Assembly: GCA_050014195.1 (NCBI GenBank)
Contig: JBEKDT010000001.1
Span: forward strand, 384,001-448,000
DNA length: 64,000 nucleotides
Origin: Desulfomonilia bacterium
GTDB lineage: Bacteria; Desulfobacterota; Desulfomonilia; UBA1062
Reading direction: 5' to 3'
This document shows, piece after piece, positions 11,965 to 44,967 of the stretch. The stretch's first letter is position 1. Every line of letters starts with the position of its first letter. The translations under genes were made by a program, and so were the position numbers. Below the pieces are notes generated by a model. The model made no database searches and was not told the origin of the DNA. It saw only the letters and a list, made by a program, of their open reading frames with translations.

Positions 11965-12052
11965 GGAGGGATGGCCGAGTGGTTGAAGGCGGCGGTCTTG
12001 AAAACCGTTGTACTGTAAGGTACCGCGGGTTCGAATCCTGCTCCCTCCGCCA
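11965..12052 (+). tRNA. tRNA-Ser(TGA)
   Basis: GGAGGGA/TCCCTCC acceptor stem, GGCCGAGTGG D-arm, CT-TGA-AA anticodon loop, long variable arm, GTTCGAATC, encoded CCA. Confidence 0.96.
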
Positions 12053-42937: not shown

Positions 42938-43840
42938 ATGGAAACCTTCACAAATATAGAATTTCCTGCTGTAAAAAAGTTGGGGAGCGGCAAGGTCAGA
43001 GAGATATTTGATGCCGGCTCCGAGCATCTTCTTATTGTCACTACCGATCGCATCTCAGCCTTTGATGTGATCCTGCCCGATCCAATCCCTTCCAAAGGCT
43101 GTGTCTTAAACCTACTCTCCCTGTTTTGGTTTGAAAAAGGATCATCCATCATCAAGAATCATGTGGTAACTTCAGCCGTGAACGCCTACACGGAGCCATT
43201 TAAGGGAGACAGCCGCCTAGCCGGGAGGTCCATGCTGGTAAAAAAAACCAACCCTCTGCCCGTGGAGTGTATTGTAAGAGGGTACATCTCGGGCTCGGGC
43301 TGGAAAGAATACCTTAAACTCGGCTCCGTCTCCGGGGTGAAGCTCCCTACCGGACTAAGGGAATCAGACCGCCTTCCTGAACCTATATTTACTCCCTCCA
43401 CCAAGGCACAGATCGGGCATCACGACATCAATATCGATATGAAGACCGCAGGAGACCTCGTGGGTCAGTCCCTTATCGAAGAGGTAAAGAGTATCTCACT
43501 TTCAATCTACTCCATGGCGGCGGCCCATGCGCTGGGAAAGGGTATCATCATTGCCGACACGAAATTCGAGTTCGGGCTTTTAGAGGGAGAGCTCATCTGG
43601 ATCGACGAGGCCCTCACTCCCGATTCCTCCAGGTTCTGGCCGCTTGAAGGGTACATGCCGGGAGGGCCGCAGAAGAGCTTTGATAAACAGTTTGTCCGCG
43701 ACTACCTGGAAACTCTGGATTGGAACAAGACAGCACCGGGGCCCAATCTGCCGCAGGACATCATTAAGAAGACCTCTGAGAAGTATATTGCCGCCTATGA
43801 GCTGCTTACGGGAAGAATATTCGCACAAGAACGGGCATAG
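42938..43840 (+). CDS. purC: SAICAR synthetase
   Basis: [40 protein letters not shown]. Confidence 0.96.
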
Positions 43841-43893
43841 AATCCGCCCCTGCTGCTTTTTTAGAATGGTCTTTCATGATGCAGGAGCTCTAT

Positions 43894-43929
43894 AAAAAAA
43901 ACCACCACTCAAGAAGGCGGTGGTTTTTT
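43894..43929 (-). terminator. Intrinsic terminator (possibly bidirectional, stronger on minus)
   Basis: Minus strand AAAAAACCACCGC-loop-GUGGUGGUUUUUUUU. Confidence 0.8.
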
Positions 43930-44107
43930 AGGAACGAGGATGACACTTTCTCAAGATGCAGGGTTCTTTCCGATCTCAATAAGGAGATGCCGGGGGTACC
44001 GAATAACAGGTCTGCGCGGCTCTATTTTTTATAGTTTCTTCATTTAACCTTATGGTCGGTTAGCCCGCCTAGGGATCGGTTTTTCGAATACCCCAGCTCT
44101 TCTCCCT
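43894..44107 (-). ncRNA. Candidate structured small RNA (~214 nt)
   Basis: Upstream sigma28-like promoter, long 5' stem with G-U pairs, terminator, no ORF of meaningful length. Confidence 0.45.
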
Positions 44108-44114
44108 AAGAAAT

Positions 44115-44141
44115 GTATCGGCAGCGATGTCGATTGCTTAA
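44115..44141 (-). promoter_or_regulatory. sigma28/FliA-like promoter TTAAG-N14-GCCGATAC
   Basis: Fits the TAAA-N15-GCCGATAA geometry. Confidence 0.55.
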
Positions 44142-44203
44142 GCGTATTTCTTGAAAGAAAATTTCATGACGACCAGCGGTTCAATCTGGGTATTCCTCGC
44201 CTA

Positions 44204-44890
44204 TCATCTCAGGTTTTTATGGCCCCCCTGTGCAGACAAGAGATTGTTCACCCAGCTCCGGGCGGAGTCTGATACCGCACCGAAAGGTATCGGGGACCCG
44301 ACGATCAGATCCACAAGATGCTTCAGCATGCGTGCCGTGGCACCCCAGACTACGCCCCCCTCGATCTCAAGGAAATAGATGTTGACGCCCCTGCCCCGGA
44401 AATGAGACCGCTCAGCCATCCAGGCCGAATCACTCAGCGCCTTTCTCAAGGGGACCAGCAGCAGGATCTCGGACTCGCTGTTGATCTTAAAGTCGTACGG
44501 ATAAGGGATGGCACCCACCACCGGCGTGATGTGATATCCCACAATGGATATATGGTCATCCAGTAGGCCCAGGACTTCCACGTCATCCCGGCAGAGCCCG
44601 ATCTCCTCGTGGGCCTCCCGCAGAGCCGTCTCCACCAGGCCCTTATCGCCGGTCTCCACCCCTCCGCCCGGGAAGCAGATCTCTCCCTTGTGGTGCTCAA
44701 CGTCCATGGACCGCATGGTGACAATCACCTGGGGATCACCGTCACTCCAGCACAGGGGGAGCAGGACGGCAGATTCCCGGAGGTCCTCCCGGGGGATGAT
44801 CCTCCTCTTGTGGGCGGCCAGCAGGGTACGGATATAATCCTTCAAGGCCTGCTCACTACCAAGAAGCTCATGGATTCTGGAACCTTGCAT
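44204..44890 (-). CDS. Nudix hydrolase, CoA pyrophosphatase (NudL-like)
   Basis: SAVLLPL, HKGEICFPGG, ALREAHEEIG Nudix box, VWGATA. Confidence 0.92.
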   Translation of the reverse strand: MQGSRIHELLGSEQALKDYIRTLLAAHKRRIIPREDLRESAVLLPLCWSDGDPQVIVTMRSMDVEHHKGEICFPGGGVETGDKGLVETALREAHEEIGLCRDDVEVLGLLDDHISIVGYHITPVVGAIPYPYDFKINSESEILLLVPLRKALSDSAWMAERSHFRGRGVNIYFLEIEGGVVWGATARMLKHLVDLIVGSPIPFGAVSDSARSWVNNLLSAQGGHKNLR

Positions 44891-44967
44891 GGATGCTTCT
44901 ATTACCACAAAGAGCTTGCCATGAACAGGCTTGACCGCATGAGGTCTTGCTGTATATTATACCACTC

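Follow-up and report, generated by a model that had tools for sequence, protein, structure and literature searches.

In Escherichia coli, the sigma-28-dependent small RNAs (sRNAs) called UhpU, MotR, FliX and FlgO are reported to bind Hfq and to adjust the level of flagellin, the number of flagella and motility (PMC10578931). Two further reports describe CJnc170 (FlmR) of Campylobacter jejuni as a FliA-dependent sRNA (PMC11187230) and the Campylobacter RNAs CjNC1 and CjNC4 as sigma-28-dependent paralogues, identical in 37 of 44 nt, that act without Hfq in a reporter system (PMC4626219). The late-class sigma-28 RNAs of Campylobacter feed back on flagellar biogenesis (PMC11187230, PMC4626219), and in both groups the flagellar-sigma sRNAs give the flagellar hierarchy an additional, post-transcriptional level of control (PMC10578931, PMC11187230, PMC4626219). 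Here we describe a candidate for this class in a 64,000-nt stretch of DNA (the window) from a Desulfomonilia bacterium (GenBank assembly GCA_050014195.1, contig JBEKDT010000001.1, positions 384,001 to 448,000). The candidate lies on the minus strand of a 363-nt spacer (window positions 43841-44203) between two convergent genes, purC and a Nudix hydrolase gene. We propose, with a probability of roughly 0.6, that it is a stand-alone structured sRNA gene of the late flagellar sigma-28/FliA regulon, acting in trans in an uncultured Desulfomonilia-type family.

The locus shares some features with the known RNAs and differs in others. E. coli UhpU lies in the 3' untranslated region (UTR) of a metabolic gene, and the present RNA is likewise found near metabolic genes; however, the E. 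coli RNAs are UTR-derived (PMC10578931), whereas the present RNA stands alone in a spacer between convergent genes. It has no sequence or Rfam relation to the E. coli RNAs, forms a closed hairpin of ~128 nt and comes from a different phylum. C. jejuni and the present host both have a CsrA-FliW system, but CjNC1 and CjNC4 are described as short paralogues, whereas the present RNA is single-copy, much larger, more structured and unrelated in sequence; in addition, no flagellar target was predicted for it. Another point of comparison is 6S RNA (RF00013), a long irregular hairpin of ~180 nt with paired ends and a large central bubble, which binds the sigma-specific holoenzyme. The present RNA is also a long irregular hairpin with paired ends, but its core is only ~128 nt, and it has no large central bubble, no conserved internal promoter-like sequence and no match to RF00013. 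We read it as a lineage-restricted addition to the sigma-28-dependent sRNA class. Full-text literature searches, outside supplements and subscription journals, turned up no sRNA work on this group: one unrelated paper came back for the lineage, and none that bears on the -10 motif in deltaproteobacteria.

A BLAST search of 41 related genomes with the spacer returned it from 11 of the 14 other members of its genus and from no genome outside the genus. The block of conservation begins just upstream of the -35 element and reaches as far as the terminator. A covariance model (R1), for which 12 cores of the same genus were used, matched the own genome once (145.3 bits, E = 9.3e-39), with no second match up to E = 1. 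Among the 52 genomes of the family, R1 detected exactly one copy in each of 26, distributed over 5 of the 14 genera (g1, 13/14 genomes; g11, 4/5; g23, 2/2; g7, 3/3; g5, 3/12), and none was found in the remaining nine genera. A second model built from the 26 genome copies (R2) added nothing over the order, which comprises the same 52 genomes, and gave no match in the 70 genomes of the sister family in the class; as the R1 and R2 genome searches scored only a fraction of the first-look candidates under strict filters, these absences are to be taken as "not found". In a collection with one genome for each of 185,579 GTDB species, a strict two-block pattern, which is blind to diverged copies, matched 17 loci. 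All were in metagenome-assembled genomes, titled as Desulfomonilia, Thermodesulfobacteriota, delta proteobacterium/Deltaproteobacteria or Syntrophaceae UBA6087, with three labelled Bacteriovoracaceae. The same pattern matched 16 metagenome contigs. The RNA is, by these searches, a lineage-restricted single-copy gene conserved in its relatives.

Covariation was analyzed in an alignment of 42 model-aligned copies, representing 33 distinct sequences and 30 base pairs. Over the 33 sequences, 95.5% of the pair cells were standard-paired, and 13 of the 30 pairs changed on both sides (55 cells). None of 500 column shuffles matched the observed paired fraction, the compensatory counts or the covariation score. 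As a control, sliding the 3' partners by 1-3 columns left 38-50% of the cells paired and 2-8 pairs changed on both sides. The 26-genome alignment gave 94.7% paired cells and 12 of 30 pairs (44 cells) changed on both sides. The four helices were paired in 96.0% (P1), 97.7% (P2), 94.5% (P3) and 91.3% (P4) of their cells, and P3 and P4 each had four pairs changed on both sides. Compensatory changes were found from G-C to A-U within P2 (columns 19/130; 18 versus 14 of the 33 sequences) and from G-C to U-A at its base (columns 13/137; 30 versus 3), from C-G to A-U in P3 (21 versus 11 sequences), and from both G-C to A-U and C-G to U-A in P4. When eight homologues from different genera were folded singly, all eight converged on one architecture, a long irregular hairpin, at z values of -1.27 to -6.39. 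The small apical hairpin kept its form while its sequence differed in almost every genus, and the UAACC element and the A-run were conserved across homologues. A lineage-variable extension after P3 (P3b, 4 pairs) was formed in 45-79% of the sequences, though not in the window's subclade.

Four wobble pairs were conserved as well, namely U·G in 32 of 33 sequences, U·G in 23, G·U in 18 and G·U in 16. Read from the opposite strand, each of them would become an A·C mismatch, and they point to selection on the minus-strand RNA, in agreement with an earlier reading of the window from its letters alone (the initial annotation), which had remarked that several mismatches of the stem and terminator read as G-U wobbles only on the minus strand. 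The strand asymmetry also bears on whether the locus encodes an RNA at all. Short open reading frames (ORFs) exist here and could mark a small protein gene on either strand: a five-codon minigene (AUG-AAG-AAA-CUA-UAA) and the plus-strand ORFs 43876-44034 and 43940-44047, the latter preceded by AGGAACGAGG. A DNA element (a repeat, for instance, or a palindrome bound by a protein) might in turn be suspected from the recurrence of the 12-mer CCTTATTGAGAT at four further places in the genome. However, stop codons interrupt all six frames of the own core copy, none of the frames stays open across the 26 homologues, and the closest relatives are separated by 1-nt indels in the A-run that shift the frame. 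The minigene, which the initial annotation had pointed out, is indeed present, but it is not conserved. The wobbles speak against a DNA element, and a repeat is at odds with the single-copy nature of the locus and with the lack of flanking similarity at the other 12-mer sites. We consider a protein gene or a DNA element very improbable here, and conversely have little doubt that the locus is a real structured RNA gene.

Two observations on the same letters can be recorded separately. The 35-codon ORF at 43940-44047, with its Shine-Dalgarno-like AGGAACGAGG ahead, runs antisense to the tail and to P1/P2; it was rejected as a gene, as the corresponding ATG opens only 4-12 codons in the nearest relatives, and the conserved letters are taken as the CU-rich motif of the RNA. 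The 12-mer CCTTATTGAGAT spans the junction of P1 and the tail (43971-43986), and its four further copies (C5:47307, C17:108248, C10:135092 and C14:21477) compare with ~0.5 expected. These sites show no consistent gene context or start-codon position, and the recurrence may be due to chance, given that ~200 positions were tested.

Folding of single sequences contributed little. The 214-nt minus-strand RNA folded at -66.1 kcal/mol (z = -2.89), a value reached by 1 of 200 shuffles; for the plus strand of the same region, z was -2.00, and 8 of 200 shuffles did equally well. Folding energy alone would be weak evidence for an RNA gene. Since the single-sequence folds only mildly beat the shuffles, the case rests on the comparative evidence, and we regard conservation, covariation and promoter retention together as decisive. 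Known RNA families do not account for the locus. At the gathering thresholds of Rfam 15, the only match in the whole window was a tRNA at 11965-12049. A permissive scan of 43700-44350 returned seven matches of 13.5-17.9 bits (E = 3-9.7), compared with gathering scores of 36-66, and these fell mostly on the terminator hairpin; six homologous loci of other genera gave no Rfam match. The view in the initial annotation that the signatures of SRP, 6S, tmRNA, RNase P and riboswitches are missing is thus in line with the scan.

In the sigma-28 consensus, ~14-16 nt separate a TAAA-like -35 element from a -10 element resembling GCCGATA(A). The initial annotation had read TTAAG-N14-GCCGATAC at 44141-44115, with a predicted start near 44107 that coincides with the 5' base of the stem, and had ascribed it to a FliA-like sigma factor. 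The letters were confirmed and then compared with those of the 31 distinct homologues for which 45 nt or more of upstream sequence were available. Of these, 26 kept the full motif (T-N-A-A-[G/A], 13-16 nt, N-CCGAT[A/G]) and 30 the CCGAT[AG] core of the -10 element, whereas the sequence between the two blocks diverged freely. In 26 of these 30 homologues, 5-8 nt separated the end of the -10 core from the model start; the distance was 11 nt in one (L033) and 0 nt in the three copies from genus g7. Transcription is predicted to start at 44107, because of its distance from the -10 element and because the distance from the -10 element to P1 is nearly constant in most homologues. This A lies 1 nt ahead of the first base of the stem.

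A strict form of the motif, T[TCA]AAG-N14-15-GCCGATA, occurs at 14 sites in the 4.2-Mb genome, as opposed to ~3 expected from composition; for one strand of the 363-nt spacer, the chance expectation is ~1e-4. Judged from their open-frame context, 8 of the 14 sites are intergenic, in a genome of which ~87% is coding by a crude gene call. Two of the eight directly precede flagellin genes with Flagellin_N and Flagellin_C, and the -35 element of the flagellin promoters in this genome is TAAAG. Other intergenic sites precede genes for a PilB-type ATPase and an NlpC/P60 hydrolase and a DUF4388/HTH operon that is divergent from a small ORF. One site inside a 765-codon open frame (contig C10) precedes a gene for a GspH-type pseudopilin. 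fliA itself is encoded (276 bits versus a cut-off of 189.6 bits), and a sigma-70 scan of the locus returned nothing. FliA promoters reportedly need stringent agreement with their consensus (10.1101/188474). From its retention across genera and its sharing with flagellin genes, we conclude that the motif is the sigma-28 promoter of this organism and that the RNA gene carries it, so that initiation there would depend on FliA, as the initial annotation had supposed. That the RNA gene is sigma-28-driven appears likely.

The conserved unit is a closed hairpin of ~128 nt, whose purine-rich 5' end pairs with its CU-rich 3' end. A U-rich tract such as CUCCUUUUUCUUUU follows immediately after P1 in most lineages, tens of nt from the purC stop codon, and the hairpin should double there as its own intrinsic terminator. 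In the window's subclade this tract has decayed to CUCCUUAUUGAGAU, and the form with a tail and U8 is confined to that subclade (8 of the 26 genome copies; two metagenome copies have the same post-stem sequence). The only stretch of the tail kept in all five aligned representatives is the UCCUC core of its CU-rich motif, which is predicted to be largely unpaired. A 214-nt RNA is thus plausible for this genome, but as a derived form. The hairpin at the end of the tail was absent from the output of a simple terminator scan, yet it was formed in the computed fold; on the plus strand it comes after purC and is followed by U6. These data match much of the architecture drawn by the initial annotation: the long stem, the inner stem, the small AACC/GGUU and CUAU/AUAG hairpins on the minus strand, the ~50-nt tail and the hairpin with U8 are all there. 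Two details changed, as the 3' arm of the long stem begins at 44007 and not at 44008, and the proposed length of ~214 nt holds for the window's subclade only, as opposed to the ~128 nt of the conserved core. Its central proposal, an unannotated structured RNA on the minus strand, is supported by the comparison of homologues. The features are listed in Table 1; the Nudix protein scored 118.2 bits against the NCBIfam model of CoA pyrophosphatase, under the cut-off of 134 bits.

Table 1. Features of the RNA locus and its two flanking genes, in window coordinates
Feature	Position	Strand	Remarks
-35-like element TTAAG	44141-44137	-	Sigma-28-type promoter; followed by a 14-nt spacer and the -10-like element
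-10-like element GCCGATAC	44122-44115	-	Sigma-28-type promoter
Predicted transcription start, A	44107	-	8 nt past the -10 element
Conserved core RNA (covariance-model match)	43973-44109	-	Irregular long hairpin: P1-P4, variable apical hairpin P5, A-rich linker
P1, GGGAGA with UCUCCU	44106-44101 with 43987-43982	-	3' strand CU-rich, anti-Shine-Dalgarno-like
P2, GCUGGGGUAUUCG with CGGUACCCCCGGC	44097-44085 with 44001-43989	-	
Apical domain	44002-44084	-	P3, P4, unpaired UAACC, small hairpins, A-rich stretch
P4/inner stem, GCGGGC with the beginning of GCCGCG	44068-44063; 3' strand from 44020	-	
Conserved unpaired UAACC	44062-44058	-	
Lineage-specific tail, ~50 nt	43981-43930	-	Holds the CU-rich motif CAUCCUCGUUCCU at 43942-43930
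Terminator hairpin and U8	43929-43894	-	A6 upstream, U8 downstream; intrinsic terminator usable from both strands
purC (SAICAR synthetase)	42938-43840	+	Pfam SAICAR_synt, E = 1.7e-70; convergent, downstream of the RNA
Nudix hydrolase, CoA-pyrophosphatase-like	44204-44908	-	Pfam NUDIX, E = 8.2e-13; upstream neighbour, same strand as the RNA

The arrangement of the neighbouring genes raised the question of a function in cis. Among the 26 RNA loci, some of which end at a contig edge, purC is convergent in 24, and 21 have the Nudix gene upstream in the orientation of the RNA. In most genera, the end of the RNA is within tens of nt of the purC stop codon, and purC has no visible terminator of its own; in the window, one hairpin can terminate transcription on both strands. 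Such a layout would suit a 3' UTR or terminator of the Nudix gene, or a sigma-28-driven antisense or terminator RNA that collides or pairs with the 3' end of purC. However, five of five checked genomes without a model match (loci L072-L076 in G001, G018, G044, G019 and G022) keep the Nudix gene and purC adjacent and convergent, with a spacer of ~30-60 nt in four of them and of 236 nt of unrelated sequence in G044. Since the adjacency is equally kept without the RNA, the synteny is background, and neither neighbour needs the RNA. The clean absence from a short Nudix-purC spacer indicates that the RNA behaves as a discrete present-or-absent gene, and one of the genomes that lack it belongs to the window's own genus, indicating a recent clean loss or gain. 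Furthermore, the retained promoter with its conserved spacing argues for independent initiation, and ~100 nt of conserved apical structure goes beyond the needs of a simple terminator. We regard a cis feature as improbable.

In the mechanism that we propose, FliA-RNA polymerase would start at ~44107 from TTAAG-N14-GCCGATAC and produce a closed hairpin of ~128 nt, with its 5' and 3' ends paired through P1 and P2. In most lineages the U-tract directly after the hairpin would make it its own terminator; in this genome, where the tract has decayed, the transcript would probably continue for ~85 nt through the CU-rich tail to the hairpin shared with purC and its U8, giving ~214 nt. The RNA would then act in trans after the release of FliA at a late stage of flagellar assembly. 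Its likeliest mode would be to pair with mRNAs by way of the CU-rich tail, of the conserved UAACC and A-rich apical loop, or of both, possibly with Hfq. Base pairing is favoured because of the terminator with its U-tail, the encoded Hfq (74.3 bits), the exposed elements and the precedent of E. coli and Campylobacter. The Rho-independent terminator with a U-tail and the presence of hfq in the genome are features of Hfq-type sRNAs, and the CU-rich motif ahead of the terminator would be able to cover Shine-Dalgarno sequences. A base-pairing regulator that acts in trans and is expressed with the late flagellar genes is a tentative assignment, to which we give slightly less than even odds. The RNA is probably a new regulator tied to motility.

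Several observations weigh against the proposal of a trans-acting sigma-28 sRNA. Alignments A2 and A3 were fitted to the covariance model, and the shuffles ignore relatedness. In P2, 5 of 13 pairs are invariant and another 5 vary on one side only; since this helix is mostly invariant, part of the structure signal is plain sequence conservation, for which protein binding would be no worse an explanation than base pairing. The full promoter motif was missing in 5 of the 31 homologues, namely L033 (-35 element TGAAG), the three from genus g7 (TAATG-like -35 element) and L044 (no recognizable -10 element). fliA scored above the cut-off in 49 of the 52 family genomes, whether they have the RNA or not, and its co-occurrence is uninformative. 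No terminator was seen between the Nudix stop codon and the promoter, leaving room for read-through from the Nudix gene, and the 24 sequencing runs listed for the locus were all represented by DNA contigs from peat or wetland metagenomes, with no RNA run among them. The RNA is also unlike typical seed-bearing sRNAs in that both of its ends are paired and its conserved single strands are short. The candidate seeds (UAACC, the A-run and the CU-rich tail at 43942-43930) are either short or lineage-specific. Targets were searched with RNAduplex in 3,931 crudely called translation-start regions of the own genome. Long segments gave only long gappy duplexes (best z from -3.8 to -4.5) and short segments gave best z values from -3.8 to -5.9, with no outlier in either scan. 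The 16 top matches contained no flagellar or chemotaxis gene according to Pfam.

Those top matches included a PAS histidine kinase, a metallo-beta-lactamase-fold/RNase Z-like protein, ClpP, HPPK, an HtrA-like protease, an Fe-alcohol dehydrogenase, an HTH protein and an M48 peptidase. An exact-match search of the genome returned only matches of 13-17 nt; one of them was at a crudely called translation-start region, and it lay on the terminator stem.

The outcome of the target scans, together with the closed hairpin and its paired ends, would suit an RNA that is real and sigma-28-driven but titrates a protein, which could be CsrA, FliW, Hfq or, in a 6S-like manner, the FliA holoenzyme. The conservation of P2 points the same way, as it is near-invariant on both strands, with the U·G wobble of 32/33 sequences and a fixed bulge, and exceeds the needs of a helix. 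Potential partners are available: CsrA (85.6 bits; csrA at G000:C1:240245-240400), FliW (148 bits) and Hfq are all encoded, fliW follows a flagellin gene with a sigma-28 motif, and the leader of a second flagellin gene (L069) has GGA-in-loop motifs. However, CsrA sponges of the CsrB/RsmZ type expose many GGA motifs in hairpin loops, whereas the sole broadly conserved GGA of the present RNA sits in the P1 stem. A second one, in CGGAU, alternates with CAGA, and the apical hairpin loops contain GGA in few lineages only. The internal CCGAU, which might suggest a promoter mimic, is CGGAU or CAGA in other lineages, so that there is no conserved -10 mimic, and the internal loops are small next to the central bubble of 6S RNA. 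Neither the locus nor the six homologues matched 6S or any other Rfam family. The idea of a protein sponge or promoter mimic, raised in the initial annotation and alluding in its second part to 6S RNA, consequently found no specific support, given no conserved internal -10 element, one or two GGA motifs and no 6S match. We consider titration of a protein the main rival, though less likely than base pairing. A more specific version, in which the closed hairpin, made only upon release of FliA, is a decoy of CsrA, FliW or the FliA holoenzyme peculiar to the sigma-28 regulon, with the near-invariant P2 and its conserved U·G wobble and bulge as the protein-binding site, would be more doubtful still, although it would considerably raise the interest of the RNA. 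If this were true, the expression of late flagellar genes in a FliW-type bacterium would be subject to feedback by an RNA, and we know of no CsrA-antagonist RNA in such bacteria. A decoy of a flagellin leader was also considered and rejected, as the RNA has no similarity to the flagellin leaders beyond the promoter.

With a trans-acting sRNA of the sigma-28 regulon as the preferred reading, the comparison with E. coli and Campylobacter suggests that the same sigma-28 sRNA design arose independently in an uncultured Desulfomonilia-type lineage of peat and wetland. The candidate is well defined, with a covariance model, 33 distinct sequences, a clear promoter and a clean pattern of presence and absence among close relatives. 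It offers an entry point to the regulation of motility in organisms that cannot yet be grown, and it can be searched for in peat metatranscriptomes.

Some further sigma-28-type sites of the genome deserve mention. In the flagellin gene L067 (G000:C9:23064-24173), the ATG lies just 10 nt past the -10 element GCCGATAA, indicating that its mRNA is leaderless or nearly so; fliW (L095, G000:C9:24239-24601) comes directly after it. The leader of flagellin gene L069 (G000:C11:35359-35485) is ~100-150 nt long; its GGA motifs, found in the loop of a hairpin as well as at the Shine-Dalgarno site, are similar to CsrA binding sites. At G000:C2:63653-63719, two strict motifs stand back to back on opposite strands; on one side they are followed by a 106-aa protein without a family match and then by a DUF4388 and HTH protein, and on the other side by a 90-aa protein without a family match. 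At G000:C4:120796-120893, TTAAG-N15-GCCGATAT is followed ~45 nt downstream by a hairpin with U8, and no ORF of at least 40 aa starts within 160 nt; this site may be a second sigma-28-driven short RNA.

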